A DNA stretch of 64,000 bases, taken from the NCBI GenBank assembly GCA_973895155.1, contig OZ316893.1, forward strand, positions 15,654,645 to 15,718,644, written 5' to 3'. A model generated the notes under the pieces. That model saw only the letters and a list, made by a program, of their open reading frames with translations. It searched no databases and was not told the origin of the DNA. Of this stretch, positions 1,598 to 57,237 are shown piece by piece (within the stretch, counting starts at the first letter, position 1; each line of letters opens with the position of its first letter). This DNA comes from Marsupella aquatica. Lineage: Eukaryota > Plantae > Marchantiophyta. The translations under genes were made by a program, and so were the position numbers.

Positions 1598-3676
1598 TCA
1601 CGGATGCTCCAGAACCTTTGACTGTCCAAGTAGAGTGTGTAAGCAAATTGCTAGGCACATCGTCATGGCCACCAAAGCCTTCGATGCAGTGGCTTGGGCC
1701 AGCTCCCCTGTCTTATTAATTACACGTAAGACTTTGGCAGTACCTGCACTCCTTTCAGATACAGATCCTTTCTCTGCTTTACCTCGTAGCGTCTGTGATA
1801 CCTTGGAGAGCATTACATCAATCGTCGAGCGAATAGCTTCTGACGTCACCGTGCCAGCAACATCCAACACGAGGGCTCGGTTGCTTGGTACAGCTAAAGT
1901 CCGAGAGAATCCCTCAATCCACCCCTGGGAAATTTCGGAAGACTTTGTAGGAAAGACTACTGGCTTCCCATTAATCTGACGGTAGCTTGAGGACGAAAGA
2001 AGAGGCGCTTCCCCCTTGTCGAACTCACCGACTGGCATCTTCTTCTCACTCTGTGGAGAATGATCAAAAGCAATCCTCTTGCTTCCTAAACCAGAGAGAC
2101 TCAAGCTCTCCGAATCATGGCTATCCGGACTCCAAGGAGGTGGTGACCCTGGAGCCAAATGGTCATTCCCTCCATCACTAGTACCACACTCACCTGAAGC
2201 TCCACCGTCTGAATGATCCAACTGATTGAAGCAGCTATTCTTCCCAAGAGAAAAGGTCAAACGCCGGACATCACGACGAGAACCCAGTCCAAATTGTGTG
2301 GACTCCATGGTTTGACTTTGCTGAGGTGCGGACGAGGATGAGGCCACCGATAACACTTCATGAGATGCTCGAACCAAAGTTTCCAAGGCCCCGTTGCAGA
2401 CTGATGTCAGGAGATCCTTCACCGAATCTCTATGTGCAGGGTTAGCGACCGTGCTAAGAATTTCTTCGTAAATGTTGATGTCTCGAGTTTTGTCCAAATA
2501 AACTGAAACCGCCGTTCCTACAAAAGTCTCAATGCAATCCGCAATAAGGGACTTTCCCTTACTGCTACAAATAAATTTTATCATCCCGTCTTGGAGAGTC
2601 CCGGAAGCAGCAGGGGAAGACGTCGGCTTCTTGATAGCTTCCTCGCTGGTGACTCCATCCGTCGCCCTTGCCTTCGGCTGTGGATTCTTAGTGTCTTTTG
2701 CCTCCCACCTCATGGTTCTCAACATTTTGTCCCCTATAATGTTCGCATCGTCCTGGTTCATCTGTTGCATGCCCTCAAGCACAGAGAGGACAAGACTGCG
2801 AGTAGCACTTGCCACCACGACGGCGGCGAAACCCCGGCCGGCCTCGCTGAAAATCTTCCCCACCAGCCGTTCGGGAAGCCCTTCTTCCCTCCTTTCCATC
2901 CTTTCCCTCTTCGGAATTGGAGATCTACTCTTCCTTCTCCCACCACTGCCACTTGTCTCTGCAATTGATGCACCAGTCGGTGACCCACTCCACGCCCTCC
3001 CTACCCCATCCTCATCCTGCTCTCTCAGCCGACGCCCACCTTCTCCGCCTTCATTAAGAAATGCACTATCACCCTTCTCCAATTTTCCCCTCCTGTACTC
3101 GTGACTAGAGTTAACCTCACCTGCATCTTTGAGGTTTGGGGTATAGGCTTCCCCCAAAGATTCCTTCCATCTCCTTTCCTTCCTAAATTCCCTACCTGAC
3201 TTTCCAATCCTTTTGAATCCTTTTCGAGATGATAGCTCTTCAAACAAGGCCGACCCGTAATCGGCCCCGTCTTGCAAAATGGGGGCTTGTTGCTCGAGAA
3301 GACTACTTGCAACGCCTTGAGTGACAGATTTACACAAGAGAGCCACAATTATCTGGAATTCCCGGGTATGGCCTACTTTGAACAATTGCTTGAGGGATTG
3401 AGGTACTTCGTCCTCCTTGGAAAGAAGAAAAGAATGCAGGTCTTTCCACAATACGCCCACGCAGTCGCTTCCTTGAGCAGCAGACTCTAGCAGGGAGGAA
3501 AGAGAACGAAAGAATCGATACAATTGGAGCCGCTTGCGTGTGAGAGATGGAGAATTATAGACACGGTAAGCGACGTACCCCCCCGCACCGATTGCACAAC
3601 AGGCTAAGAGCAAGTTCCGTTGACGACGTGACGTCTGTGGGAACGGGAATGGGAGGAGGCTCTGGAGACTTTCCAT
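1598..3676 (-). CDS. PHLOEM PROTEIN 2-LIKE A10 family protein (At1g10150-like), 692 aa, single coding exon
   Basis: The N-terminus RRQRNLLLACCAIGAGGYVAYRVYNSPSLTRKR..KDLHSFLLSKEDEVPQSLKQL and the core GRGFAAVVVASATRSLV, GKSLIADCIETFVGTAVSVYLDKT, KDLLTSVCNGALETLVRASHEVL and LAVPSNRALVLDVAGTVTSEAIRS match the conserved blocks of this family as I recall them. Low-complexity insertions lie between the blocks. Confidence 0.85.
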   Translation of the reverse strand: MESLQSLLPFPFPQTSRRQRNLLLACCAIGAGGYVAYRVYNSPSLTRKRLQLYRFFRSLSSLLESAAQGSDCVGVLWKDLHSFLLSKEDEVPQSLKQLFKVGHTREFQIIVALLCKSVTQGVASSLLEQQAPILQDGADYGSALFEELSSRKGFKRIGKSGREFRKERRWKESLGEAYTPNLKDAGEVNSSHEYRRGKLEKGDSAFLNEGGEGGRRLREQDEDGVGRAWSGSPTGASIAETSGSGGRRKSRSPIPKRERMERREEGLPERLVGKIFSEAGRGFAAVVVASATRSLVLSVLEGMQQMNQDDANIIGDKMLRTMRWEAKDTKNPQPKARATDGVTSEEAIKKPTSSPAASGTLQDGMIKFICSSKGKSLIADCIETFVGTAVSVYLDKTRDINIYEEILSTVANPAHRDSVKDLLTSVCNGALETLVRASHEVLSVASSSSAPQQSQTMESTQFGLGSRRDVRRLTFSLGKNSCFNQLDHSDGGASGECGTSDGGNDHLAPGSPPPWSPDSHDSESLSLSGLGSKRIAFDHSPQSEKKMPVGEFDKGEAPLLSSSSYRQINGKPVVFPTKSSEISQGWIEGFSRTLAVPSNRALVLDVAGTVTSEAIRSTIDVMLSKVSQTLRGKAEKGSVSERSAGTAKVLRVINKTGELAQATASKALVAMTMCLAICLHTLLGQSKVLEHP

Positions 3677-6061
3677 AGCTACCTCTTCTCTTCTCGTAGT
3701 TGCGGTGCTGCTCGCTTCTGTTGCAGCGCTAGGAGGAATTCAACCTGGAGGGCTATGAGACCCCGCAGCTCATTGATGCAGCCAAGATCACAAATCTTCG
3801 TTTGTCAACCGGAGGTCGCAAACTGGCAAACTATGCAAATACAACAGGTCATTCATACCAGACACAAACGGGGACTTCAAACATTCGTTGTTTTCGCGGT
3901 TCCCGTTTCAACACGAGGAATAAAATTGGCCACCATTACACCACACAGCTGATTGAAAAACACACTAAGTTAACCTCCAGAAATCCTGTTCCCGAGCCCG
4001 CTTGGTTACAAAGAGTCCGTCGTCCCTCTGAAACCCTAATGCACCCTCAACCGAACTCTTGCCGTACCAGAGCTTCAAGAGGAGCAAAGCCGTAGCAGTT
4101 CTTCACAGACCTCTCCCAACAATCCCTGGAATTCCTAAAGAAAGAACAATCGCCCTCATAGCTTCGCCCCTCTACAACCGCACGTCTTGTTTTGTCCTCC
4201 ACCGGAATGGAGTGTAAAGGAAGCTCCGCTGAAGCTATCATAGCAAAGCGAAAACGCTTAACGCAACTCACGTCACATCACGTCGCGTCAGCGATCAGCT
4301 CAGCCAGCTCTGCATCGTCCTTCCACAGACGACAATCCACGGCTTCTTCGTCTGACCAAACTACTGTTCTCCGGGCAGTCTATCGCTCCTCCTCCGTCGA
4401 AACAACCATATACAATCCCTACTAACAAGAGGACGAGTCTGCTTCTACAGAACTGTGCTCCATTCAATCAACAGCAACTTCAAATTCTATAGTATCCCAA
4501 CCGGAAGATCATTAGGTCGTCGCTTCTTCATCTACCAAATTATTGAATGATAATCCCGGCGACGACAACGCCGAGACAGGGACATCGGCCTGCTGCTCTT
4601 CCCGGTTGTGGCATCTTTGATCAACTGATACAGACGATGGCGCTCGTCAGATTCGCTCCACGCGAGGGACGACTGCGGATGAGATGTCGTGCGAAAGAGA
4701 ATTCAGACATCTCAGAGTTGCAGAGGTCGCGTCCTCCCTCGGGGTTTCTGATACGCGTTCGGCCACTCGTTTTTGGAGCAGATTCCTATGAACATGGATA
4801 TTTCATATCCAGCTACCGACATTTCGCATTCACACAATGGATCATTCTCTGCCTCGAAGCGCATCTTCACCAAGCGATAGAAATCGAAGTTCCCCCATAA
4901 ATCTTGGGTGGGGCCAAAGTTCGTTAAAGTAGCAGTAAGTTTTCGTTCCCCAAACGTTTGGTACCGTAATAAGATGCGGTTGGAGAGCGAAACAGTAGTG
5001 TAGGTCCATCGCACGATGGGCCGAGTGTAGAATGAAATCTATGTTCAACTTGTCTCCGACTCTCCCGAGGTTCCTCGTGAGTCTTAACAACTTTACCACA
5101 TGTTTAAGTTGTACACGCGGCAGAGTGTTTCATTGAAGTGGGGCCAGTGCACTTTGTTTACCGTAGTGTAATCCGGGTTTGTGATTCTCCAACTATAATA
5201 TCCAATCCATTGTCCTCTTACAAAAATAGCTCCTCTTACAAAAACAGCTCTGACTGGGAACCATAAACAGCCTTTGGTTTTTTTTTTGCACTTTTTCTCT
5301 AACCATTCAATGCAAAAAGGTGCGAGGTGTTAGGATTTATTCTTAAGTCTAAAATTAGTAGTACCATAGTTAAGGCTAATCTTAGTTGCAAACTTGGTTA
5401 GATTAATCATGCTGTGCACACTCTATAACCAAGCGATGTTTGTTTGAAGAATGGGAACTTAGGTTCATTGTTATGCTTGCTGATTCGCAAAAAAAAAGGC
5501 AAGGCGCATATGGCTCTATGCTGGGCTCCCTATCCCCTCCATAGGGTTCATAGAAGCTATTCCGTGAGAGTTTTTCGGCTAGCTTGCCGTAACCTTGGTC
5601 ACTACTGTTACCCCCCATCCAGGTGCCCCTCGCGCACATGGTGCAGTTACACCTTATCCTCAGAGCACCCCTCCACGGAGCACCGCAATCGGAAGGAGCG
5701 CCTGAACATGGCGTAAATACGGTCCAGAGTCCGCATGTCAGAGCCACATTGGACGCCCCTGCTGCCGCCGCACCTTCGGAATCTATCGATGATTTGTGGA
5801 GAGCTTGGCTCGAGTCGTTTCAGGACCTTTGGGCAGCTTTCTTTATCCCACCGCCATGGACTCGATAGGCCTCTTTGAAGAAAAGCTCAAGCATGAGGTA
5901 ACGGGTGACAGGATTTTGAACCCGATATCGAACCAGACACACCATCAGGTAACCCGTTGATCTATTATACGTAGAAGGTCGGTCCCCTCCGACATGGGCT
6001 GCCGCACCCCCGCGCATATGCCGAAGCCTGGGTAAGCAAAAATATTTCTCTGTTTTTCTTT

Positions 6062-10257: not shown

Positions 10258-11624
10258 CTACAGCTACAGGAGAAGTCTCGTTATTATGCTCTCCACCTGG
10301 GTACCCTACTGTAGGGAGGGAACCCTTCCAGAGTTCAGGCGAAGAGCCAGAGGCGGCGTGGCGGGGAGTTCCACTAGTCTCGCTGACCGGAGATTCGTCG
10401 AAGGGTTGTCAATGATCCCGGACCTACGAGGAATCAAACAGGCGAACTCATGTCACGTGAGGGATGTTGAATATGTTGGAAGTAAATAGCGGATGAAGAT
10501 GACCTATCGCAACATGGAATTCCATTTTATCCTTCGCGGTTGTGCTCATGCGCCCGGCGGGTGGTGGAAGTCCAGTAGGTATGGAGTAGACGGCGAGGGT
10601 CGCTCCTGACGCTGGGCCTACTTAAAAGTTGTTCGCAGGAAGAAACAGAATTTTCGTCGGAGAAGGTTTGAATTATAGCATCTGAAGCAGAGCTTTGCAA
10701 AATACAGAAGAAGGATACAAGCTTTTCTTGGTGCATGCTGCTGGTCCTGCGCGCTGAGCTATCAGAAGAAGTGGGAGAGGCACCGCCGCGCTCCCACTTA
10801 TTGCGACGAAGGGAGCGATTCGACCTTAGATTTGACTTTCGAGCTGATTGCCTCGCCCGCGATTGAAGAAGGTATGCATACATCGAATCACCAGTCCGCA
10901 GGGAAACAAAGTGCTCTGCTGACGTTGTCATCACTTTTTATGAACCATTGATTGATATCCTGCCACAATTCCAACATCTGTATTCGAGTGGACTCTTTGC
11001 CTCCAGAGAAGTTGGAAAGTAAGGTTCACAATGTCCCGCATCGCATCGGGATTCTCGTATCTGCAAAAATGTTATATCTTCCTCCACTCAGCCATTCTAC
11101 TTATTTGGTTAATATTTCAATAATAGTGGAGACGCGCACCCTCTGTGCATAGGTTTCCGCCGTTGGTCATGTCGCTTCTCAGGAGCCGGCGTTTGCCACG
11201 TCAAGCTTGTAGCTTCAAGGGAAATGATATTGGGAAGAATAAAGAACTGCGGGCGAGGCACAAGCGGTATTACTGTAGGAGAAGAATCCCGCCGTGATCC
11301 TACTTCTTCTTTTTTGATGCTGCAGCAGTCAGCGGATTTTATTTACCAGACATTTGGTCCCTCCGCCCAGGAACAAGTGCAACGTTTGAGTTGATAATAG
11401 ATTTTAGGAGAATTGTACAGCTAAGAATTTGTTGTATCACAGTAAGGAGAGGCACTAGAGACTCACGAGTTTGAGTGGATATAAGTGTGCGAATTGCCAT
11501 TTCTTCGTTCTAGTCCGGAACTGGACGTGCATTTCGGAGGGGAACTGGTGTAGCTTGAGCGAAGCTCAATCACCTGTGAGTGCTCCTAAAATCAATCATA
11601 TTGTTGGGCTGAATTCAGGTTCTG

Positions 11625-14600
11625 ATGGCGCAAGCATGCATACCTCATTCCTCGTCAATAAGGTAAAATCCGCGTCCCTGTCATAAACCTATTTCGGGCT
11701 CACTGTGACTTTTACACTTCCAGAATTTCTATATCGCTCATGTCTGTGTCCCTCCACCTTCCTCCGTAGTGCGATTAATCTCAGTTTCAGCCATACTACA
11801 ATATATTCTATCAGCATGCAGTTTATCCTTTAGAATTTCCTACCGTTTGGCTCATCGTCGCTCTCCTGTGCTTACTTACTCGCTGGCAGTGGAGCATCAG
11901 TATCATCCCCTCGCTTGCTCTGGAGCCCTTCCGAAGCCCTCGAGAAACCGTGGAGAGCGTTGCAGGAAGTAATTAGGCTGTTGCTGGACAACTTTTAACT
12001 TCTGCAAGCCCTGCTCGGCATGATTCAATGACGCTGTTGCTGGATAACTTGTAACCTTCTGCAAGCTCTGTTCGTCTCGACTCCTTCAAATTCTTTATGG
12101 CCGTTTGCCTTAGTATTCCAAGATTGTAGGAGCATTCAGCTTAATTCAGGCGGTCGTTTTTGTAGATCGTCAATTTAGGGTAACATTATCGTAGTTGGAA
12201 AAATGTTCCCCTATGTTCCCTTGGATCTGCACAAAAGCGCCCCAATACGCCCTACTTTGCGATCCTCTCCCCTTTCATATCAACCATAGTGCCCTCTATC
12301 CAAAAACTTTCGCAAGTCATTCGTAGGGGCTTTACTTGTTCCCTGCAGCGTCCGTTTGCATGTTAGGACGGATGCCTTGAAGGCCTTGATCTCTACTGAA
12401 AGCTTGACAGATTGATAGTCCTGTCCCGAAATGTAGGTTCCCAGCATGTTGCACAAGGGAAATTAGTTATAACATTGCGTCCCTTGTCTTCGCTGCAGAG
12501 CGATCTCATTCCATGAACAAGCCTTTGGAAATGAAGCTCGCCCTTTCAATTTCTTGGAGACTTAATTAATTCTTATCTCTCCTCACCCACGGTCGTGGCT
12601 TTGCGCCGGCCTCTAGAGTTTCTTGTCAGCAAGAGCCTCCCTCTTAAAATGCCGATGAACCTCCCGAGTTACTGAGTGCAAGATTACCCACGCTGCGACA
12701 TGTCAATTCTTCTCTTCGTAGTCCCCAGTCATTTATGTCAGTGTAAGCCATGGAATGATTTCCTTGAATAATTACTTATTATGGAAGTTCTTTAGCAAGT
12801 TTCTTGGTTGGTGACGTTCCGAAACCTACCTAACCTAAAGTAGACGTCTTCAGGTTGGGTGGGAATTTGCTGTTTACAACTTTGAGGAAGGATGGCTCGC
12901 AACAACCGTCGTGGATGGTAAGCAGAGTTGCTATAATATCATAGAGTCCATGCAGTGGCTTCTGTTCGAGGAGAGGGAGACCTCATCAGAATTACTCCGT
13001 CTTGAAGAATCTATCGTTAGTTAACCTGCAACCTCCTTTGCAGACGACCAAATCTAGATTTTGGGGAAACGTCGAGATGCTTGGGTGTGGCAATCTATGC
13101 AGTTCTGGTCGTGGATTTTCTCTATCTGGAAGAGCAGTACCCAATGCTCACAAAGCCAGGTGCGGAATCCATTCGAGTGCTGTGCTGCAATTTGCTGAAC
13201 GCTTGTTATTGCATCTGTCCTCTTTTCCAGGCTTGCCCGTCCCTTAGTTTACCTACAAGATTCTATGATATGCTGTTAATGGTATGTACAAGTAAAATAT
13301 CTGTGGTACAGTACAAGCGTACCGTGAATGTTGGACATTAGAAGTTTCTTTCCCACCGTTCAGAATATGCGACAGGTGCTGAGCGAAACTTGATGACTTG
13401 ATCGATTCCTAACTTTTCTTGTGTTTCTTTGTTAACTCGTTGGCGTGTTGTGTTTACAGGGTTTCGTGCTTGTAATGTCTATTTTCTTACTAACATCTGC
13501 AAGTCTGCACATATGATGTAGGAATCGAGTTCCAAAACTAGTCAGTTCAAGTATTCGAGAGCCTCACCCAAGCAAGAACACAAGCGGTGGAAGTCAATTT
13601 TCAAGCTCGCCAAAAAAACATCAAACCATTTCTGATGGACTTACCCCGAGCAGTTCATCTGCCAGTGCAGCATCAGCCACAGTCCCAACTGTGCCAGTTG
13701 AGGTTGAGGAGTCTGGCCCGGAGTTTTCTATCAGGATGGATAATGAGTCCACTCCGGGCGTGTCTGTGATTGAAATTCAGGGTGTCGACCAGGAGAACTT
13801 ATTGGTTGATGTTACAAGCAGCTTCAGTGAAATGAGAGTAAGGCAAGTTTATCTGAGTTTGTCACTGTTTGACCTATGTAGTTCTGACCTTTATGCAAAC
13901 TATTCTTTCCTTTTCAGGACAACTTGCATATCACCAGTGCAATTGTCTTTCCTGGAATTCTCCGGGCTTGCTGGGACTCTCTGGATTGATGAAATAATTA
14001 CATGGCAAAACCTCTGATCCTTCGTATCTGATACATAAACAGTGTACAAAGTGCAAAAGTCCTTACTAGGAATGATCGTGTATTAGACATCTTCACTGTG
14101 GTGGATTCTGAGACGAAGGCAGCCCTAGATGAAGACCAGTGGCTGAAAGTCAAAGAAAAAGTACTCACCAAGTTGAAACGACGTAGAAGCATTCATGCAT
14201 CTAGAAACGATCCACTCCTTCTGGATCAGGTGCGCCAACATTCTCATCAGGTTGCTGCTACTGTGTACCATTGGCATTAGAAATGTATCTTGTTAAGTTT
14301 GATGTACAAATCAGATTGCAAACTGGATGTATCTGGCCAAATATCAAGTTTCCTTGGTCGCATTCTTTCTGTGCTCGAATTTTGTAAAGTTGGCTCGAGT
14401 GAATGCCTTGCAAAGGAAACATAAGTATCTTACAAATGATAGAGTTCAACTGGGAAATGGACAGGTGTCATTTCTCTGTTCAGCATTGGACAAGGTAGTG
14501 GAGGAACATGGCACTGCAGAAGTAGTTGAAGCCGTGAGTTTCGTTCCTCCTCTCGTTCCAGATCTGTTATTGTCTTTGGGCATCAATTTTATTGAAAGCG

Positions 14601-17600
14601 ATCGCGAGAGTGGTATATCCCTGACATGTTTGATTACATATGGATATGTTTAAGCCCTCTAATTTTCTGTGGAATTGGCTTTGCAGGCATATTTTCTTCA
14701 GAGCGGAATTGAATCTCTGAAATTCAATGAGGATCCTAGGAAGCGAGCGGATTTGCTGCGTTACGTTGATAACATGGAGCAATCAAAGGTAGAGTACTTG
14801 TTTCACATACTTAGTGACAGGACAATGTGATAGGTAGAGCAAAGAGCTGAGGCAGTTCTGGTGGATCCCTGACATACTTGGCTGATGGTTTCCAATCGCA
14901 GATAACTGGAGTCATAAGAATATTCTACCTTTATGCCGCACTTTTAAATGTAGCTGACGAAGCACACAGTCATCGTCAACGGCGGGAGCAGGTGCAGATC
15001 CTGAACCTTGCTGATCTTGTTAAAATGCTTTGTGAGACTTCTTATGTTGTATCACCTGAAGAGTTAAGGATGGAGCTATTGATGTCCGGGTGAAACAAAT
15101 CTGGAATTATTCATTACAGAAATGTGCTGGGAATGCTATGGCTTGTCGTCTTGGATAGAAATCTACACAGATTGGTGCAGGGAATGTGTAGGCGGTTGGG
15201 TTTGCATTGATGCATATTGCTCCTGTACAGGTGTGGGCTAGCCAACATGCCACGCCGTTATGGTATGCGTCTTTTGATCACACTCTTAGACTTTTTAAGA
15301 AAGCTGGTGTTAGTCCCAACGAGCTTCAGGAGCTTTTGGATCGTACTGAGGTGAGACAAGCAAGTCTAAGCTCTTGGTTCCTCCGAGCATTGAATAGCCA
15401 GTTTACTCCACTTCGTACCTTCTGTTAGTTGACTTAAGTGGATGAATGAATCGATATGAAGTTGTGATTTTGACAGATTCTACAGTGCAATTTTCTACGT
15501 TCATCATTCCTGTATCGCTTGAGGGCACGAACTCACCTGCCCGATAAAAGAAAATCTAACTAGTACTGAAGTACGCCCTTTTCAATCTTGCAGTACAGTC
15601 CAGTTTTTACAGCTCATCCAACAGAAGCTCGACGCAGAGAAATTCTCACCTGTCTGCACCGGATCTTTGACCTCTGCATCGCTAGAGAGGTTTTTCCCGA
15701 ATATGTTGAAAACCAAGTAGTGTGACGGCTTCATTTCATTCGTGATCACATTTGCGAATCTGCTAAGTCCAACCTTGTGTCGTTTGTACATACTATCACC
15801 ACAGGCGTTGGATGTCATGTTTCTTGAAAAGAGCGGAGAGATTTTACTGTTGGTCTATTGCGCTGTTAGTCCTACCTTCTATTTAATTGTGCCTAAATTA
15901 CTATACTTTCCTGGTGGTATTGAGGAGACAAGAATTGCTCACGTTGGAAATCATAAACATTTTCTAACAGGACCCAAGGCTGAGCCCTGCACAGAAGACA
16001 GAGATTGAAGCTGAAGTCGAAGCTGAGGTTGGATGATAGACTTACTCGGTTATCCCTGGGTCTTTACTTCCGTTTCATTGTTGCTCTGCTGTCTTATTAT
16101 TCCCCTTCATTGTTTACAGCTTGTGCAAGCGGGTGGTCGGAGCAATTTATGCTAGTTATGAGTTTTCTCTAAGCCTGACATTTTTTCGCCGAGGATCTTT
16201 GTACAAGGGCAGTTGCATGGGCACTTTTGTTCGGGCAAGATGTGCGTTGTTTACAGGGGCAATTGAAAGTAGAATCGTTTTGTTACTGGCAAGACGTTGC
16301 ACTAAGAGGGTGAAAAGAAAGGAACTGCATATTTATTATTTGATAGTCATGTTAATTCTGCTCAAACGGCCGCAGATTGAGATCTTGTGGAGGACAGATG
16401 AAATGCGCCAAACAAAACCAACAGTGATGGAAGAAATCATGACTGGTCTCGATTACTTCCGTTACTCCCTCTTTGAAGCTGTCTGCACTACTTACAGATA
16501 TGCTGAAAATTCACTGAAGGTACAATAGTTCTGTGTCTGAATTCCCTCAAGAGCATAAGCATAATTTGAGTGGAAACTCCGTCCCAAATACATTATTGAG
16601 CCGATTCAATGACTTTAAGACTCAGGGTGGATGATAAGCTTATCATTGCAATTTGGTGGATGAGGCAGCATGTTTATGGAGGTACGGTGGTACTTCCCAG
16701 TTTAATTAAATTTGGATCATGGATTGGTGGTGACCGTGATGGAAACCCTTATGGTAGGTCACAAGTTTCCTATGCATCGGGAAATGATTTTCGTTTGTTT
16801 TTAGCATCTGAAGTTTTCTCCTAATTCATTGAACCATAAGACGTTTGTGAACTCTCGCAGGTTCCTAAACTTTCTGGATGTCGTTTTGCTTCTTTTCTGA
16901 ATGCAGTGCTTCCAGAAACTACTGTTATGGCTGCCCTTCTTGCGAGTAGGCTGATTGTTGCTGAGTACATACGACGGTGTCGCGCCTGTCAGGTTGCTGC
17001 TTTTACTTGCTCGATCTTTCTACAGAGATGACATCCATTGACCGTCTCCTTCTTTCTCGTATTCCCTTCTTAGTTTAGTGCGGCAAAGATTTTCTCGTTG
17101 TCGTTGCATACTGCAATGACTACTGTCTACTTTTTGTGCTGAAATCCATACGAATTCTATTTTTGGATTTGTTTTTATCAACAGTGTAAAAAACATTCAA
17201 AATTAGCTGGTTTAAGTAAGTCATCTTGAGCGATCATGGAAATGTTTCCACGGAACAAATTTCTCCCAATAACTAGGGTTTTAAGAAGCATTTCATTATC
17301 GCAGTCTCTATACTGCTTGTTGTAAAGTGATCATAGACATGTCAGGTTACAACTGTCGTATGACACAAACTATTAAGATGAAATCGTTAGTTGTATTTGC
17401 TGTAGGAAAAATCAACTATCTATTCAGTCATCACGCCTGAGACTTCTGTCTTGTTGTACTGATTCTTTTGAGGTTCTCGCAAATTTCATGGATGTTACAG
17501 GACACATTGACGCAGTCATTGCAAATCTGCAAAGTATCACCACAATTGCTGGAAAGTCTAGAAGAAGACAAAAAGATTATTGAAAAGATCCCTACCCTTC

Positions 17601-20600
17601 GACATCAAGTCGGTGCGTTTGAACAGGTGCTTATTAAGACCGGGTCCGACAATTGTGTTGGTCTCTCTCGAATCTAATTCTCCTGCCTGGCATTGTCAGC
17701 TGGAGGTTTCTAACCAGTAGTATGTTTTATTTCAGGAACCTTACCGCCTAAAGTTGCGAGTAATGCGACATCGTCTGGAGCAGATGCTTCGAACTGTAAA
17801 TGCCCTCTTACGCAAGTTGGGTGGAACTAACCTAAGTGATGAGGTAAACTTAAGCTGGATTTCTTGCTTGTATATCGTATTGCAACAGTTGGAGAGTTGT
17901 CCGTTCTAGACTTCTTGAAGATAGGTTGTCTTTTCTCTGGATATTTGAGGATTGCAATTTTCCCTTTCCTTTCCAGTATTGGAGTTATTGTTCCGCGTAT
18001 CTGGCAAAATTGAATAGAAATAACGTGTAAACTTTGTGCAAATTTTGGTCCAGTTGCTGATTGACATTGAGTACAATATAGATCAAATACCTGGGCTTGA
18101 TCCCAAGGAGGATACGTATGCTGACGAGCGAGGTTTTCTACATGACCTCAAATTGATTGATGTGAGTTTAGTGTTCTCTCTGTATGGGAATTAAACTGAC
18201 TTCCCTTGAATGGTGGAAGGACTCCCTATTTAAAATGCATTCGCAATAGTTTAAGCATCCCGTCTCGTCCAATTGATCAGGATGTAGTTATAGCATAATG
18301 CAAGAGTTTCTCTCCACAAACGGACTCAATTGTCAGGATTCTGTTGTATGGTCTGCAGCGATCGTTGAGAGAAAGTGGGGATGTGCGACTGGCTGATAGC
18401 AAGCTTAAGGATCTGATCCGACTAGCAGAGACTTTCGGATTTCATCTGACTTCTCTGGATGTCCGGCAAGAGTCTACTCTGCATACAGAAGTGCGTGCTC
18501 AATGCTTTCTGTTTTGTGGACATGACAACTGGTAGAAACAAATTAGTTTAACTTTACTTGACAAATTACAGAGTATTATTGTGCGCAACTGCTTCAGATT
18601 TGCTTTGATGTGTTCCGTAAAGTAATAGATGACGTCTAAATTCTTGGGCAGGCTACTGCAGAATGCATGAAGCTTCTGGGCTTTGCAGAAGACTACAAGT
18701 CGTTACGTGAGGAAGAGAAGATGGCCACACTTGCAGAAGCTTTGGCCAAGCCACCTCCTGTTGACAAGGTTGAGGTAAGTGAATAAAACTATTACTTTCT
18801 CAATCAGGCATCTGCTAATGGGCTTATGGACGATGATCTGTGTATCCTAGCTGACAGAAATGTTTTGCAGGGCTTACTGAAGACAGTGTCAGATTCAACC
18901 CGTGAGGTTCTTGGAATCTGCAGTGCTTGTGCGGAAATCATGGACACCATCGCTCCTAAAGCTATAGCATCCTATGTTATTTCTATGACGCGTTCAGCGT
19001 CAAATGTCATGGAGGTGAGTCTTTCCAACGCTTTCATTTATGTGTGCTTTTGTTTTTGCAGATAAATGTTCTATAAAGTTACTTCCCGTAACAGATCTCC
19101 TTTGCTCTGCAACATTCTGTGTTACGCAGGTATTATTTTTAGCATGGTTCACATGTCAAGGCCTAATTGGAAAGACATCGTCCGGTGAATGGAAAGCCAA
19201 CATGGTGGTTTCCCCATTGTTTGAGACAATTCCTGACTTGGAGGTACTGTATTATATCGAGCCTACTTGATCAGGCTGTAGTTTTACCTAGGCCTCTCTG
19301 TCGTGAGGATCTATCAAATCTCTGAATCGCAGCAATTGTCATCTACCGGGAGTTGATGAGGTGGATGGGGTCGATCTGATTCAGAACATGCCCGGAGCAC
19401 TGGAGCTTCTGCTTGAGAACAACATTTATAAAGAAATCTTGGAGGCATCTGGTGGTGTCCAGGTGCGTTGTCAACGACCCTGTAGTCTGACAATTCTTAT
19501 GCGGGTAATGTAATTGTCAGGAGAGCGTTGGTTGACAAAATAGTCTTTATCTGGTAATTTCTCAATTACTAATCCAGGTTCATAATAAATTACAAATAAT
19601 GCAAGCATCCCTGGCAGGTCGGTACAATCTTTTGAGAGTGCTCGTGTTGCTTTGCAGGAAGTCATGCTGGGTTACTCCGACTCATGTAAAGACGGAGGTA
19701 TCTTTGCCAGTGCTTACAATCTGTACAAAGCTCAAGAGGTGATTCAAAGGATCACAAACAAGGCAGGAGTCAAGTCCCGCATATTTCATGGGCGTGGTGG
19801 CACAGTTGGGCGAGGAGCGGGCCCAACCCATGAAAGTGTCCTTGCGCAGGTATCAATTTTGGGTTGCCAGTCTTCTCTCAACTTCTGTACAGGGGTGTGA
19901 CAAGGATTAATGGTATATTGCAATTTTTTGGTGTTTTGTAGTTTGTGAGGAGAGATTCTCAGAAGCGGTCCTTCGAGCTTGTGGTCCTATGTGGGAAAGC
20001 CTCCGACGCCAGCTAGGACTGCATTCCTAATGTTCATGATCTCGTTACAGCCACCCGGGAGCGTTGATGGCAAAATTAAATTCACGGAGCAAGGCGAAGT
20101 CATCACATATCGTTACGGCAACGCTCCGACAGCAACCTATGAGCTCACGGTGGGTCTTGTCAAAACTAGGACCCTCAGTTGGCGACGCTTTCGTAAGTCG
20201 TCAATGTAGGGAATTTTTTTTTAAATTCTGATGAGGTCATATGATTCCGGAAATTAGACTGCGTTGCTCTTTTCATTCAAGATTCACCAGAAATACATAT
20301 TAGACAGGAATGTTGCTGTTCGGAATTACGAAAAATCGGCGCAGACGTTCTTCGCGTTCACGGCGTAATATTTGTGTTTGTATTTTGCAGGTTGGTATTA
20401 CTGGCCTCCTCAAAGCCAGTCATCCGACTACACGCGCAGAGGTGGTGGACAACCAGAAGGTCTGTGCCCTCACATTTGGAATTTTAAAAGTTCAATGTTC
20501 CCACTGAGGTTTTTGATAATGGCTGTTTGTCTTCTCTATATGCGGTTTGTACTTTGTAGAGTTAACACTTGGATGTGGGCGGCTTGCAGTACTTCCAAGT

Positions 20601-22030
20601 TATGGATGAGCTAGCAGACCATGCAGAGAAGCACTATCGAGGATTGACTGACAACACGGAAGGCTTTTATGACTACTTCTATGATTGTACTGTGGTGAGC
20701 GAAATTGGGCTTATCAATATCGGTAGTCGGCCTACCCGACGGAAAGCTGCTGTCCGTGATAAGACGTCCTTGCGAGCCATTCCTTGGGTGTTTGGATGGG
20801 CACAGGTAGGGTCAAGAACTCTTGATGTGAGTCGAGAAAGTCGATCATCTTGACGAGGACATAAATGTAGCTAAACTAATCAATAATTCGTGCCTTGATA
20901 CCCGCCGTCTTCATTACATCGGGAAGTAGCTGAAGAGACAATTTCGGAATCTAGGAGCCTTTTTGATTTGACGGTACTGCTGTCTGGCTGGCAGTCTCGG
21001 CACACGCTTCCGGCTTGGTATGGAGTTGGCAGTGGTATACTTGGATACACTCAAAATGATCCTAGTCGTATTCAGGAGCTTCAGCGAATGTACATTGAGT
21101 GGCCATTTTTCCGCAATTTTCTTTCGAATGTCCAGGTATTAAAATCAAGAACATCTCGTCATTTAGCTCAGCAATTCAAAGGACTCGCGTTGCAGAGACG
21201 TCCTCTCTAGGACTGCACTGCATTTTAAGATTTCGCATCAGTTAATAGTTTTGTCCTCTGCAGATGTCGCTCTTCAAGGCATCCATGGAAATTGCACAGG
21301 AGTATGCCAGACTTTGCAGGTTAACCTTTTTGTCCACACCCCCATCCCCCTCCGTCTCTCTCCTCTTCTTCCTCTTCTCCCTTATCCTGGCAAGTGCATT
21401 GTCACTCATGGATCTCAAGCCATGCAGATCTTTGATTGTACTTCGCTGCTTTAGCCTGCCTAACGTGTGTTCTGTTCATCAAATCGCTCTTGATTGCAGT
21501 AACCGAATCACAGAAAGACTGGTCTACGATTTGGTTTCCCAAGAGTACTCCTTGACGATAGAACAGGTACATCTCTCAAGGACTACAAGATATAAGCAGC
21601 TTTAGTCATTGGAATTCCTATTCATTTGCGACTCTCTTCAAACGACAAGTGACGCTAGAACGCTCGCCTCAGGATTCTACCCGCCTGTGCAGATTTTGAT
21701 GATTTCGCAACAAAATGCACTACTCGAAGATAACGCAGGATTGCAGAGATCGTTCAACACTCGCCGGAAATATCTTGATCCTCTCAATCACATTCAAGTG
21801 AGTTTTCGTTTCTGGCTCATACTAACTTGAAGTTTGCAATAAATAATTTGTGTTGTATTAATTTCCTAGCTGGATCGTCATTTGACAATGGTCGGCTTAT
21901 TGGCTAACAGGTGATCTTGTTGGGGAGAAGGAGAGATCCAACTGCGTCTCAGGAACAAGTCTTAATCTGGGAAAAACCATTGCTGCGAACAATAAAAGCC
22001 ATTGCTAGCAACATGCGAAATACTGGATAG
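11625..22030 (+). CDS. ppc: Phosphoenolpyruvate carboxylase with putative plastid transit peptide and N-terminal ACT domain, about 1190 aa, 31 coding exons
   Basis: Hand-spliced, phase-consistent exons: 11625-11662, 12854-12917, 13044-13159, 13522-13842 (GC donor), 14043-14229, 14465-14533, 14687-14788, 14902-14991, 15231-15350, 15594-15689, 15971-16027, 16376-16519, 16669-16753, 16907-16992, 17501-17626, 17736-17843, 18054-18161, 18359-18490, 18652-18774, 18871-19014, 19130-19243, 19385-19462, 19658-19849, 20051-20149, 20391-20459, 20590-20805, 20995-21135, 21264-21319, 21500-21566, 21693-21797, 21911-22030. PEPC motifs: [97 protein letters not shown] and C-terminal MRNTG-stop. The first three exons are less certain than the rest. 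Confidence 0.93.
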
Positions 22031-34007: not shown

Positions 34008-35728
34008 TCACCTCAAGACAAGATGGTCTATTATTTCAAAATGCATTTGCAAATCTGGGGGCCTCTCACTGAAGTAAAGCCTTTCATTGACTTGAAGTTT
34101 ACCACCTCCATACTTACGAGCAGCCTCCTTCAACAACTGAACGCAGCGGTTCTTCTCCATTACAACCCATCTTCGATTACTATCTTGCCACTGGCGTGGG
34201 GTTCCATGGATTCCAACATAGAAGCCGCCACCTCTTGACCTTGCAGCTTTTGCCAGCCCCTCGAGCACTCTAGGGTCCGTCTGATATGCACCTTGACAAT
34301 TCAACCCAACATCCACATAATGAACCTCTTCAATACTGCTGAGAAAGGCTTCTACGGTAGAAGGTAGTAGTTGGCTTTTCTTCTCTTCTTCGGGTCCTCC
34401 TTTTCTACTCACCTTGTCTTGTAAACTGAATATTTTAAGTCTATGGTCATCATGAGAATTTAAGGACTCCTCGTAATGTACAATCTCCGCTAGCATTTGA
34501 TTGAGGATGACTCCGCCCTTGCTGAAGCCCAAAAGAATCATGGGTGGGCATTTATTCACCAGATCTCGGAAGGGTTCAAAGGGAGATGCCTTTTGTACAC
34601 ATTCATCAGAGCTGCCGTTTTCCTTTCCTTGCAACTCAGCAACTTTGCCATCTTTATGCTTCTCCCGAAGCTGTGCAGCTTTTACCTTCAAGAGAAACAA
34701 TGAAGTTCAACATTAGGAAAAAGAGGGATATTCACGCACAGTATTTTCTGCCTCAATTGACGAGGAAGAGTAAATAGCCAATTCCGAGTAGACAGAGAAA
34801 GGTCTCATCGGGCAATGCTCGTTGGCCAGTACCAGTTGTTACTGTAGAGCCTCCAATGTACATATTTTTGCACAAAGATATTATCTGCGTAAGCCAATCT
34901 TGGAGAAAAGGAAACCAACTAATACTGAGCCAACTATCTGTCACTGCAAATGATACCCCTGTCCTATCCTCTGTGATTTGACTACCGACTCGTACACGTG
35001 AATTGAGGCAGATGATACTCTTCAGTACAATCTTCCATTACATGATTTAGCATAAAGAGATTGATAACCTGCGTAAGACAATCTTGGAGGATGGAGAAAC
35101 AGGCCCGAGCTGCAGGTAAGCCTTTGGGTTTGTAACCTATGGGTTCTCCAGATGCAGTCAAGCTAGGTAAAATGTTTTCATAGCAGGCAAATGGGCCCTT
35201 GTAAACTGACGCTTCCATGATCCACAAGTTCACAGGTTGTTGGCCAAGCTTGGGAAGCAAGGCTGCTGCAATGTTCTCCAAATGCGAGAGGCGTTCCACT
35301 ATTGGATTTGCGGACTCCCTCACTCGATCTCCCACAAAGAATATAACATTGCTTGCCGGCTCCTGCTCTCTACCCCACAAGACCAGCAATCCACATGCCG
35401 AACATTGTTTCAATTACAACAGTGTGCAAGTCGTTGCTTCTTTGACAGTAGACACAGAAAATTTGCAACATCACAATCACGAAATTGACTAAACCCTAAG
35501 AAAATGAAATCACATTTTTGTGTGCAATCATACTGGACAGGGCGAGAAAGGAAGGACAGGGACAGGAAAACAACCAGGGACAGGGCGAGAAAGGAAGGAC
35601 AGGGAGGGAATGAGTCAAACCACAAGAGAGCCCGAAGAAGTGCATGCCAACGAAGCCAAAACTCGGAATCCATGGCTGCTGCTGCTCCTAAGATTCAAGA
35701 CTCCTTTCCATCGTTGTGCCGTAGCCAT
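34008..35728 (-). CDS. C2orf69 / UPF0565 family protein, 3 exons, about 359 aa
   Basis: Exons 35728-35621, 35362-35069 and 34685-34008 (phase-0 introns) give MATAQRWKGVL..FRVLASL..EPASNVIFFVGDRV..GPFACY..GEPIGY..LLGFSKGGVILNQ..VHYVDVGLN..HGTPRQW..LQMHFEII, the family motifs. Confidence 0.88.
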
Positions 35729-41200: not shown

Positions 41201-42035
41201 CTCTCCTGATGACTGGCTGGCCGGAGAGCTGGCTGCAGCAGAGCAGCTAGCCCCATAGCAGCGACCAGTTGTGCATGAGAGTAGGGTCCGGAAAGCCAGC
41301 TCGGGGCGTCCCAGCGCTGTGGAGTGATAGAAGAGAACCGGGCTTGTTGCTCGACGGAGGTGTCAGAGAGTGGACCTCCAAATTCGCTGGGTTGGTTAAT
41401 TGTTGAGTTGGAGCGGACGAACAGACGGTCATCGGCTGCAGTTGTCAGGCCGGTTAATTTGCTGGTTCTGGGGGAGCTTTGAATGAATTTCAGAGCAGGG
41501 TCGGTGAAATTCGTGCTAAAGCCAATTTGAATTTTATCCTGGGAGAAGGTTAACGGTTATCTCTACTGGCGTTGGATGGTCGATTGCCTTGCAGAAGCCC
41601 TGTCTGTCGTTGACGTAGTGGCTGCCTTCGTGCGAGTACTCGGCACTATTTCATTTTCTGTGTAGCTGGAGAGGTAGCTAGCCGGCCTCTGGTTATGAGA
41701 GGTAAGGTAGTGCCTGAGCCATGAATGCGGCCCGTGGATGATTTGATTTGGGAAAGACCACGCGTGAACACACTTCCAAAGTCGAACCTGTCGCCACTAG
41801 CCAGCAGCAGCAGCAAGTCCAGTAGTAAGGTAGCCTTCCTCTCGATTGATCTATCTCGGCGTGGGGCAGGGCAGCTTGAGTGCCTGAGGCGGTGGGCAGG
41901 ATTGCACAGGGTCTTAAGAATTTGTCCGATTACTGTACCCTTGGATTACTACGGCACATTTGCGGATCCTGGAGTAATTTCAATACTGACCACGCCCGCG
42001 GAAGCAGAGTATTTCGCGAACGAGTGCCGAAAGCT

Positions 42036-45000
42036 ATGGCTCCTACTGGAAGGGAAACGGGCTTCGTGATGCCCAAAAATACGAAGAGAACCCCATCACT
42101 GAAACATTGGGACGACTGTGCTGATCCGACGGACATTTTAGCTCTGTGGGCCCATTCCGCTGTTAGGAACGAGTGGATCGCCGCAGGGGAGAAACCGGGA
42201 CAGAAGGTCCATTTGTCGCGGGCCTTCGAGGGTCAACCTCACATAACCGAAGTAGAAATGAGGGTGAGTTTGATTGTTCATCTTTAAGGGAGAATCATCT
42301 CACAGTGAAGCGCTATTCAATTATTGACATTTTGCTGGTCTTTGGCGCTGGTGCCCTTCTAGTAGGAATATTTAGATTGCGCAGTAGATTATGGAACAAG
42401 TGATGAAGAAATGAGGGTGAGTTCGGATGAAATTTTATGGCAAGTTAGAGTTACCTGATAGTGAAGCTTCTCAGCACAGCCTGCTAAATTGGCTAGTCTT
42501 TGGCTCTTTGACGTTGGAGCCTTTCAGCGGGGATTGTTAGAGAATTTAAAAAGAAGCAAAATGCAGTGTTGCAGAATCAATTTTGCCCAGTCTGGAGACT
42601 GACAGCCGTCGTATGTTTGGGTCGAAACAGGCAATAGCTGAAATTATTGTGGAGAGATATTTTACCAAACTCGACCCTGTAAGTATCCATACCTTACCAG
42701 ATGCACATCAAATGTTTCCGGAGAAACCATGAAATGAGGCCTGAGTAATGGACAATTGGGATGGAGACGACTGGGTTACGTTGTAGCCGTCCTGATCCTG
42801 ATATGTGCATTGAAAGGTCTCCAGCTTGAAGAACGGGACGAGAACTGTGGAATTAGAGTTTTAATAATTTAAGGTTCAATAAGCACTTCAATTTGAATTA
42901 TTCTCGCCAGGATGTGCTTTTAGCTGGAGGCAACTTAGAGAGTGGGTTGTTTCTTGCAGATCATGATTTGCGCAATAGCAGAAATTGAGAGTTCCCGTAA
43001 TCCGCTGGCATTTCGCTGGGAGGAGAGTCTTCAAGAAGCTAGTACTGGGCTAATGCAAGTACTACAATCTACTGCGGATTGGCTTGCAAAGTGAGTTGAT
43101 CGCTGTGCTACTAATTTAAGCACACGAATTGCGTGATGAGGGAGTCTTCTAGAAGAATGCTTGCACTTGTTTAGTCTGAACGAAACTGATTTATCAGAAG
43201 AGAAGGGCCAATTGTGATTTATTTAACCCTTATAACCATCCCTCGCAAAACTCTCTTGAATAGTTGCTTCATGACCCATTACAGTAGAGCAATTGCTATC
43301 GTTATCGGCAGAAGCTTCAACAGGTCTCTCAACTACTCGTGCCTGTTGTCGTGTGCAATAGTTCACGTGTTATGCTTAGAAAAAGTGCTGCTCCAGAGGT
43401 TTGCGTTGATGCTTGTCAGACGTCATGTTTGTCTTGCTGAAAGATGAACGTCTACGAGAAGATTGAATTATGATGCTCTCTCGAGTACGGCTAAAGTTTG
43501 CTAGGTCAGTGAAGCAAGAACTGTCTTGGGAGCAATTTCATTTGAGAGATTGCATTGTCCATGTAGTCTGGCCATTCATGGGATTTCAAATTATGTGTGC
43601 AGAGAGATGGGTTACAAGGCGTATACCATCGACTGGACTTCATCGATGCTGTACAGGCCATTTGTCAGTATTTATTTTGGAGCAGCTTATCTCAAATGGC
43701 TTTCAAAATACCAGGGCAAGTGAGTAAATGACACAGAAAATCCAGATTTCCGCAAATGTCCCTTCTTTTACCGCAAACTGAAAGCAATCAGAGCTCATGT
43801 TTCGCTTTGTAGTTGGGCACCAGAAAGCCAAATCCTGTCACCCTGGCCTTCATGCAAGTCACAAAATAGAAATTCACGGATCTTCTCATATAGAGTTTCC
43901 TTGGCGCCATCGGTCCATACAGCGGTCAGTTCTCTTTGGGCCACTGCTAGGTTGAGAGCCATCTTCGCAAAGTTTTCCGTGAAGTCTATGTTCATCATGT
44001 CGTTGCTTCTTAAACTTTCCATCTGTCCTTTTCCCCTTTCTCACTGCCTGAAAGCTGAGATCTTTTTCTTTCACTAATCTAGCCCATCCAAGATGCTCTA
44101 TGTTGGAGCGATTCATCTCTTTATATGTTTCTCCGTTTGACGCTTCTCATAAAAGAATGCAAGTAAATCTCGCCAAAGCCATCCAGGGTTTATTTCTGGA
44201 TCCGGAGTACTGTTTGAATGAAGTGGAAGGCTTTCTGGTAGTAGTTTTTCAAGTTCCCTAACTAGGCACCAAAATGTCTTGATCTTGAACTTAAGTGCCT
44301 GTAACAGGCGCTGTCGAATGATACTTTAGACTTCCGTTTTTTCTGTTTTGTTTCCTTTCATATGATGAGATCCGTCCTTTTCATATGTAGTAAGGAGTTC
44401 ATGTAGTTCCTCCTCACGGGAGAAACTGTCACCCGGCGACTTCCCTTCACGTCACCGGGGAGTCCTTTTTATGTGTGCTTTGATCCCACTGCTTGCAAAA
44501 TATATTTATCTAACCTCATGACCTGACATGTAGGAGGAGGAGTGAGGAATTTATTGTGCGAGGATACAATGGGGGACCTAAAAATGCTGCGAGTAAGAGT
44601 ACTTTGGATTATTGGACCAAATATCTGATCGCTAAACAAAACATTCAAATGAAGAGGTACATATGCTCTTGCAATCCTACCTCACACCTGCAATTGCTCC
44701 ACACTTCTTGTGTATTGTCATACGCATTTTCTTCTATAATAAAATTTGTGGAATGTGGCAGCTCTGACGATTGGGTGGGACACTATCTTAACTTCTGGGC
44801 CCAAAGTCTATCTCCTGAGAGCCAGCTACAAGCTCTGCAAGTACTGAATACTCATTCAGATAGTCTTAAGTATATATCTAGTTCTATACTATCGTTTTCC
44901 TATTAAGAATTTATTCCACATAGGTATTAATATTTATTAGTTTTTTTGGTCGGACTTTTAATGTCACATTTGGCAAGGTTGATTTAAGATATCTCACAAT

Positions 45001-55598: not shown

Positions 55599-57237
55599 TT
55601 GGATTTTATGTTGGGTTGCAAATGAATTGCATGTTGTAGTTGGATGAGGTGGTGCTTGCTTCTTTGCAAGATGTGCTCCATACGCACAATCCTTATGTGC
55701 TGATGTTCAAAAATGCCAGGAGCCCCATTGATGATGTTGAGGTGTCTCAGGTTTTGCTACGTCTTGTAGTTGAACATGACACCAACCCAAGACGTTACAA
55801 TAAACCCATGGCGGATGAGATTGGTGTGATCATGGTTGGGGATGAGGATATTGAAACACGTGGTTGAGATATTATCCTCAAGACAAGGGACGGCGGCCTA
55901 CATAGGATTTTGGAGTGGCATAGGTCATATGCTCCTCTCCATTATGTCTTACTCTTTTTGCATGGTCAAGACGGGTGGTCTTATGACATCCCATTGGTGG
56001 GCCATGAATTTCAAGACGCGGTTACTGGGGCAGTTCAACCCCAAGCAAGTGGTGGACGCAATGGCTCCAAGAAGGTTACACAACTACAATACTATGCGTT
56101 ACTTGCTACATGCAAGGCAGGGTGATGATTGACTGCTTTGTGGAGGGAAATTGCTAAAGCAATATATTGTGGACGGGTATGCATGCATAGATCAAATGCA
56201 ACTGACCTATATTTGCAACAATAAAAAAAAGTTGCGCACAGAACTATATCAAGGGCTTCAAGATGTAGTTCAAGACAAAGATGGACGTGCAGATGATGTA
56301 ATTATATAGGGCCTACATTTTGCCATCCTCATATGGGGGTAGTGCCCGCAATATGATGCAGGCATACCAAGACGCCATGGTCATTGTACGCACATATGGT
56401 CCCCCTGACCTTTTACCACATTTACGTGCAATCCTGAATGGCCAGAAGTCAGAGCAAAGTGCTACCCTTATCAGACCCCGGCCGACCAAGATGACATTGT
56501 TGCTCAAGTGTTCAAACTCAAGTTAAAGGCATTGTTGGCGGTCATTTGTGCAGGGGTCTTAGGTAGACTTGTTGCCTCTATGTATGTCATTGAGTTTCAA
56601 AAGAGGGGATTGTCATATGCACACATTTTGATCAAATTGGTTGAACGCCATAAACTACGCACGCTAGAGTTGGTTGACCAATGAGTCCTGCAAAGATACC
56701 AGACGTGCAGGTGTATCCGCAATTATTTTAGACTATAACAAAATGCATGGCGTACAATGTAGCAAGGGCTACATGAGACTATTCTCAATTGAAACAGTTT
56801 TGGGGGATGGTGGGTATCCCATGTATCGATGTCAAGATGATGGACACAATTTTACAAAGGACCAAAGCAAGTTTAAGTTTGATAATAGGTGGGTTGTTCC
56901 TTATAGTCCATACTCGAGCATGAAATACAGCGCTCCTATTAATGTGGAAATATGTTGCTCTATCCAAGCCATTAAGTACTTATATATGTACTGCTACAAA
57001 GGGCATGATAAAGCAACACGGGAAGCAACAATGGAGGTAGAGCAACGTGATGAAATAAAAGAGCATTTAGATGCTAGGTACGTGTTTGCTATAGAAGGAG
57101 TATAATGGTGGATTAATCAGTTTGAAATGTCAAAGAGTAGTACTTTGGTGCAACGGCTACAGGTGTCGGGATAGGTGCATTGTGAGGGGGGACAATTGAT
57201 TATGTTTCATGAAGATTCTGAGATCATTGATGTGGTC

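Follow-up and report, generated by a model that had tools for sequence, protein, structure and literature searches.

A 64-kb stretch of the Marsupella aquatica genome (contig OZ316893.1; hereafter the window) carries, at positions 11625-22030 of the forward strand, an intact spliced gene for a phosphoenolpyruvate carboxylase (PEPC) fused to an ACT domain. The protein almost certainly belongs to an old green-plant PEPC lineage separate from bacterial-type PEPC (BTPC), which, with plant-type PEPC (PTPC), makes up the only two types recognised in plants in the accessible text of PMC9358456, PMC8100219, PMC4196954, PMC12301720 and an Isoetes preprint. The lineage was probably glimpsed in 2012, and its fusion, insert, leader and age appear undescribed in the literature searched. 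Beyond the gene itself, we favour a reading whose chances as a whole we regard as about even, in which the enzyme is imported into plastids, makes oxaloacetate for amino-acid synthesis and is likely tuned by a metabolite bound between paired ACT domains.

An intact spliced gene joining ACT and PEPC exons

An independently built model of the gene has 31 coding exons, 3573 nucleotides and 1190 amino acids (aa) with no internal stop, the same count and length that a preliminary description of this DNA had given for a phase-consistent gene. Of its 30 introns 29 are GT-AG, and the remaining GC-AG intron (13843-14042) splits the ACT domain between exons 4 and 5. Five sequencing runs were listed and four aligned; one of them, X1, comes from a related organism about 90-96% alike over the listed pieces, is RNA by guess only, and has contigs that cover exons alone. 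These contigs skip at least 22 of the 30 modelled introns at exactly the modelled sites (1-13 and 22-30), one 3061-nucleotide contig runs unbroken through leader, ACT and PEPC exons, and the ACT-to-PEPC joint (14229/14465) is present in both X1 contigs. The earlier claim of a single gene thus holds, with the ACT exons spliced to 14465 onward. The nearest protein, P0001, is an annotated NCBI protein of Calypogeia fissa, also 1190 aa long and 90.8% identical over its full length.

Ten codons before the ATG at 11625 there is an in-frame stop, which makes this ATG the first usable start. The loose 5' end of an X1 contig at 11617 was matched by eye, with splice sites checked, to 10824-10871 (+), which implies the 3' end of a likely non-coding first exon, its start lying beyond, followed by a 747-nucleotide GT-AG intron (10872-11618). 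The exon was placed by eye, as a 17-base search for it gave a single match at chance level. In the region 10412-10871, ten ATGs with short frames (2-43 codons) fall within the 550 bases before the donor of this exon, and these could be upstream open reading frames if transcribed. X1 has two differing contigs of the gene and Calypogeia fissa two annotated copies (P0001 and P0341), which fits duplicates or homeologues; no second copy was found within the window. The second X1 contig also seems to skip 12917-13736; a diverged second copy would account for this, and it was not taken as alternative splicing.

Folding and family scans were run on P0001 as a proxy for the spliced window protein. Exons 1-3 (11625-11662, 12854-12917 and 13044-13159, +) encode a leader that resembles a transit peptide in composition (aa 1-72), and the 5' part of exon 4 (13522-13723, +) encodes a disordered, serine-rich linker (aa 73-140; 25% Ser in aa 81-160). 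The ACT domain (aa 141-233; 13724-14202, +) occupies the rest of exon 4 and exon 5, and the PEPC domain (aa 243-1190; 14465-22030, +) fills exons 6-31, ending in RNTG and a stop. In a structure model built on a 72-sequence alignment (predicted template-modelling score, pTM, 0.81), aa 141-233 and the PEPC domain are both confident, whereas aa 1-138 are unstructured. An earlier model (9 sequences, pTM 0.34) was too poor for the catalytic domain, although its ACT part was usable and served as the query for the fold search.

The catalytic domain matches PF00311 (E 1e-270), and the P0001 model superposes on solved PEPCs with template-modelling scores of 0.87-0.92. H377, R675, E804, D844, K847, R882, R888, R1018 and N1188 align to E. 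coli PEPC sites, and the hallmarks of the family are present: the catalytic His, PEP-binding Arg, Mg-binding Glu/Asp, bicarbonate Lys, GRGG loop and C-terminal NTG. Eleven positions of the catalytic site and four of the aspartate/malate site were checked as residues on E. coli ppc (L064). All four of the latter are invariant in 20 of 20 clade rows, as are the former except at the place of E. coli R704, which varies and is Lys in the window. The preliminary description had reported an intact PEPC with an RNTG end, and both points are borne out. Fold and active-site residues fit membership of the PEPC family, with enzyme activity itself a prediction from sequence and model.

An insert of about 22 residues (aa ~604-626; 18054-18122, +) at the start of exon 17 is found only in the ACT-bearing clade, as judged by segment lengths and a motif across aligned rows. 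The segment is 45-52 residues long in all 27 ACT-bearing rows, against a median of 24 (range 9-81) in 123 others, and the motif occurs in 25 of those 27 rows and in 0 of the 123.

The ACT domain had been assigned to the GlnD/ACR type, and profile matches together with its ACT fold agree, placing the domain proper at aa 141-233. Its best NCBIfam match in P0001 is the C-terminal ACT of GlnD (E 6e-11), which is also the best match in six of six further clade members and in neither of two outsiders. The domain is under constraint, because identity to other land plants is 47-67% there and 8-39% in the leader; in the linker it is only 3-22% beyond Calypogeia. As a side observation, both Spirogloea gene models look wrong at the place of the window's GC-AG intron, one with an insertion and one with a deletion.

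A green-plant lineage beside the two known types

The leader-ACT-PEPC architecture occurs in liverworts, mosses, a clubmoss, Zygnematophyceae, Chlorokybus, Mesostigma and prasinophytes, the members being Marchantia, Riccia, Ceratodon (two genes), Physcomitrium, Sphagnum, Diphasiastrum, Spirogloea, Mesotaenium, Chlorokybus, Mesostigma, Pterosperma and several marine transcripts. One orthologue each was found in Marchantia polymorpha (Mp8g17440) and Physcomitrium (Pp3c12_10250), and in the available part of the PMC11581415 supplement an orthogroup consists of these two alone among five species. A hornwort protein, AANG007402, is a likely member, having the same pattern in Table S1 of PMC8784020. 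Among 307 collected proteins of at least 850 aa, the ACT profile matches 44, all clade members; ranked by catalytic-domain score, 43 of these fill the first 43 places, and the last is a Mesotaenium model with many gaps. Because clade sequences went into the profile, what it shows for outsiders, with 0 matches in 64 loci with flanks, is the absence of this ACT subtype; Pfam ACT found nothing in eight outsiders. Some UniRef names of clade members already read 'ACT domain-containing protein'. No seed-plant, fern, Selaginella or Chlamydomonas names are among the clade-level matches listed (best 120 of 2758), and loss of the gene in seed plants is weakly indicated.

Trees were built on the catalytic domain only, without a true root or any PTPC sequence, as a 58-row FastTree and a 28-row IQ-TREE subset (LG+G4, no mixture model); BTPC was represented by two seed-plant-like transcripts found by motif scan in metagenome contigs. 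In both the ACT clade has 100/100 support and sits inside a 100/100 group of gammaproteobacterial-like PEPCs, which bears out the proteobacterial-like catalytic domain of the preliminary description. E. coli ppc and the two BTPCs group together (100/100) across a 100/100 branch from the ACT clade, and branching within the clade broadly tracks green-plant phylogeny. Forcing ACT and BTPC sequences together was rejected by the approximately unbiased (AU) test (log-likelihood 301 lower, p 4e-111), so that both trees and the test uphold the earlier view that the protein does not nest in canonical BTPC. The simplest interpretation is one early transfer followed by losses. The further claim of a third PEPC type stands as a third green-plant lineage and falls as a land-plant novelty, since the clade reaches early green algae and its origin was probably listed in 2012.

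The closest non-eukaryotic catalytic domains are PEPCs of uncultured Gammaproteobacteria (Ectothiorhodospiraceae, Thiogranum and relatives), at 44-49% identity and, for P0011, 886 bits; in phmmer searches P0001 scores only 363-385 bits to solved PTPCs. These bacterial proteins lack the ACT domain, leader and insert, and their genes have no ACT-coding neighbour within 3.5 kb. A fusion already present in the bacterial donor is unsupported, with 0 ACT matches in 61 bacterial loci with flanks of up to 3.5 kb.

Several other proteins in the collection are worth recording. P0210 and P0339 (JGI, MMETSP) are eukaryotic PEPCs with a transit-peptide-like leader and neither ACT nor insert; they lie outside the ACT clade but within the gammaproteobacterial-like group that contains it, and may reflect a second transfer or a branch from before the fusion. 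Three loci titled 'Halobacteria archaeon' (L019, L020 and L049) encode PEPCs 72-78% identical to P0011 and are probably mislabelled bins, contamination probably explains P0275, which bears the name of the fungus Aureobasidium and ranks among Paraburkholderia PEPCs, and P0207 is a fusion of an EamA transporter with PEPC.

With BTPC the window protein shares the RNTG end, a PRK00009 match, many exons and a conserved active site. It has a different bacterial ancestry, BTPC grouping with E. coli ppc, and a different build: the disordered BTPC insert of about 130 residues corresponds to gaps, the BTPC N-terminus is absent, and in place of these there are a leader, an ACT domain and a short insert of its own. 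PTPC has the same fold and chemistry at about 29-30% identity in structural alignments, but the translation has neither the QNTG end nor the N-terminal seryl phosphorylation motif that the preliminary description names as marks of that type. The ACT domain resembles those of GlnD and plant ACR proteins (ACT_UUR-ACR type) in its best profile matches; unlike them it stands singly ahead of an enzyme rather than in tandem, with a ligand loop diverged in land plants. The grass ppc4 (rice Osppc4), with its plastid transit peptide and its part in ammonium assimilation (PMC9358456, in the text available), is a branch of PTPC; the accessible portions of the literature searched report no ACT domain in it. 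BTPC is described as forming a hetero-octamer with PTPC at the mitochondrial surface.

Traces of this lineage exist in earlier work. Yue et al. 2012 (PMC3493653) reported a Physcomitrella PEPCase, GI 168029489, as a gammaproteobacterial transfer, scored 'Moss' and with no Arabidopsis homologue, and Peng et al. 2012 (PMC3521007) listed A9SLH0 as a singleton transfer. Both entries concern a plant PEPC placed among proteobacterial sequences and, as we infer, probably denote the moss orthologue of the window gene. Neither account mentions an ACT domain, leader or insert in its accessible portions, and against their moss-only and singleton scoring the clade here reaches Mesostigma, Chlorokybus and prasinophytes. 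A 17-genome survey (Shu et al. 2022, PMC8784020) retrieved PTQ42341, Pp3c12_10250, SM000126S26288 and SM000312S11989 and, in the text available, classed all four as 'PEPcase superfamily', outside both accepted types; its Table S1 lists BTPC, PTPC and the ACT-type protein of Marchantia as separate genes. In the same table (Q76-Q107) Physcomitrella has no PRK00009 (BTPC) row, so that this moss may have no non-plant-type PEPC other than the ACT type.

In the literature searched, which took in few subscription papers, no account turned up of the ACT fusion, the plastid leader or an age that spans the green plants. Main-text searches for Marchantia, Anthoceros and current Physcomitrium gene identifiers returned only Peng 2012 and one unrelated prefix match, there were no moss identifiers in the supplements of PMC11135702, and the accessible text of PMC12448838 mentions PEPC only for Alloteropsis. 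The window gene points to a third plant PEPC lineage that predates land plants, beside the two types that reviews and genome papers recognise, and a transfer listed as moss-specific would be re-dated to the base of green plants.

Proposed role and competing readings

In the scheme we propose, a gammaproteobacterial-like ppc would have entered an early green alga and, ahead of the divergence of streptophytes from prasinophytes, acquired an ACT domain of the ACR/GlnD type together with a leader and the insert. The leader would probably be cleaved on plastid import, and the enzyme would fix stromal bicarbonate onto phosphoenolpyruvate, giving oxaloacetate for aspartate-family synthesis and carbon skeletons for ammonium assimilation; we propose this stromal role because of the analogy with rice Osppc4. 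Feedback inhibition by aspartate and malate would be kept. The ACT domains may pair side by side and, with a likelihood that we see as evenly balanced, add a second input of amino-acid or nitrogen status; the insert may, speculatively, be the surface that relays their signal. The gene was not found in seed plants and appears to have been lost there. If the enzyme is plastidial, models of carbon and nitrogen flux for bryophytes and streptophyte algae would change, and a PEPC with a separable sensor domain would represent a new mode of control for a much-engineered enzyme.

It is tempting to go further and to see here an ancestral third PEPC class, gammaproteobacteria-derived and plastidial, in which the ACT domain is an integral nitrogen sensor and the insert its counterpart. 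In that case it would be the first PEPC that an amino-acid-sensing domain switches directly. Lineages from prasinophytes to bryophytes and clubmosses would have retained it, seed plants would have lost it, and grasses would have re-invented its function as ppc4. We hold this bolder version tentatively, its prospects falling somewhat short of even.

A number of observations weigh against the plastid, metabolite-tuned reading and its ancestry. Localisation, activity and ligand are predictions drawn from sequence, modelling and analogy, and the splice support comes from a relative's contigs rather than from the window organism's own RNA. The tree gives no firm exact bacterial sister of the ACT clade, and PTPC sequences are not in it. 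Pfam ACT families score the domain mostly under their curated cut-offs. In the fold search, the top two matches were the ACT-like domains of the maize basic helix-loop-helix (bHLH) proteins R and GL3 (Z 8.6 and 8.4), which we take to be dimerisation modules, just ahead of aspartate kinases (Z 8.2 and 8.1); ESM Atlas matches all scored below 0.9 and are leads only. The ACT loop reads N-R-x-G-L-L in most prasinophyte rows and D-Q-[ED]-N-L-L in bryophytes, and the Gly so lost usually lies at the ACT ligand site. Four models have acidic N-termini (the Pterosperma-like P0203, P0311 and P0312, and Mesotaenium), being truncated or untargeted. Finally, in the part available of the PMC11581415 supplement, the columns of experimental plastid and mitochondrial proteins do not include the Physcomitrium orthologue, whose three occurrences in file 3 are all in prediction columns.

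The loop and the fold matches give most room to a reading in which the enzyme is a plastid PEPC whose land-plant ACT domain binds no small molecule and instead serves dimerisation or the docking of partners such as ACR proteins, GS2, Fd-GOGAT, aspartate aminotransferase or NADP-MDH. We consider this possible, if unlikely. Besides the bHLH-like fold and the non-canonical bryophyte loop, it draws on a side-by-side ACT homodimer model that scored 0.40 against 0.01 for the best control, with contact agreement of at least 93% and a predicted local distance difference score of at least 84 across runs. Of 29 eukaryotic proteins solved as pairs, 17 reach the mark that this score passes, and of 30 solved as single chains none does, though the score may stem from the predictor's memory of solved ACT dimers. 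The same interface also speaks for a ligand. It takes in residues 165-166 of the loop at the start of the first helix, and ACT ligands usually bind at the loop and dimer interface. The first Asp/Asn of the loop and its Leu-Leu are retained in nearly all rows. At the Gly position, most prasinophyte rows, Mesostigma, Mesotaenium and Diphasiastrum have Gly, and bryophytes, Spirogloea and Chlorokybus have Asn. The clade does not conserve the positions of E. coli E433 and R438, which we take to form a tetramer bridge and whose loss might give the ACT domain a structural task; the bacterial sisters, however, lack both these residues and the ACT domain, so the ACT domain is not needed to replace the bridge. 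Overall, we put the odds that the domain senses a metabolite at about even, and glutamine is an unlikely ligand, since the land-plant loop lacks the canonical Gly and supports glutamine sensing weakly. For docking there is also the precedent of ACR11, which like ACR12 is plastidial and is reported to act by binding GS2 or Fd-GOGAT, by a disputed mechanism (PMC12702975, in the text available).

A second reading keeps the enzyme in the plastid and assigns it mainly to a malate valve or C4-like carbon capture, with oxaloacetate as a sink for stromal reductant or bicarbonate in place of a role in nitrogen assimilation. Retention of the gene in aquatic algae and bryophytes suits this idea, yet a PEPC in the stroma would be a rival to Rubisco for inorganic carbon, the GlnD/ACR-type ACT domain points to amino-acid metabolism, and nothing in our analysis was found in favour of such a route. 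The C4-like schemes put forward for small green algae (PMC12301720, in the portions available) place PEPC in the cytosol. We regard this reading as very unlikely.

The enzyme could also be mitochondrial, cytosolic or dual-targeted, with a regulated anaplerotic role outside the plastid. Some algal models lack a leader, the moss orthologue is missing from the experimental plastid list already mentioned, and composition alone cannot separate plastid from mitochondrial leaders. The first 60 aa of the window leader contain 22% Ser and Thr, 10% Arg and Lys and 3% Asp and Glu; their 2 acidic residues compare with a mean of 8 and a minimum of 3 in 60-residue segments of the catalytic domain, and most complete orthologues are likewise acid-poor at the N-terminus. 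Only one Arg falls in the first 20 residues of the window leader, which argues against a location outside the plastid, and in Chlorokybus and Mesostigma the leader finishes with a motif similar to those of plastid cleavage sites. For the moss orthologue, TargetP, Localizer and WoLF PSORT all give plastid and none mitochondrion (PMC11581415 supplement, in the part available). On this sequence evidence the enzyme is probably plastidial, and a home elsewhere is improbable.

That the gene is an artefact of two joined genes or bacterial contamination, or a divergent BTPC, is almost certainly wrong: the (R/K)NTG end, a BTPC criterion in the text available of PMC4196954, is present in the window protein, and P0001 exceeds the cut-off of PRK00009, the model used to define BTPC in the accessible part of PMC8784020 (835 vs 815 bits), but there are 30 spliceosomal introns, contigs joining ACT to PEPC, the same fusion in many independent annotations, identity of 32-37% to BTPC vs 46% to a gammaproteobacterial PEPC, the AU rejection and the separate Marchantia genes.

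Other features of the window

On the reverse strand, 1601-3739 holds a 713-codon stop-free frame with no Pfam match, which seems to resemble plant PP2-A10-like proteins. Exons of a C2orf69-family gene lie at 34011-35413 (-), with a PF10561 match (E 7e-14) for 34011-34706. Two similar coding stretches at 41880-42284 and 45604-46272 (+), with no clear Pfam match, are possibly tandem paralogues or a repeated domain. At 56668-57102 (+) there is a fragment that matches no Pfam family and seems to resemble a Helitron helicase.

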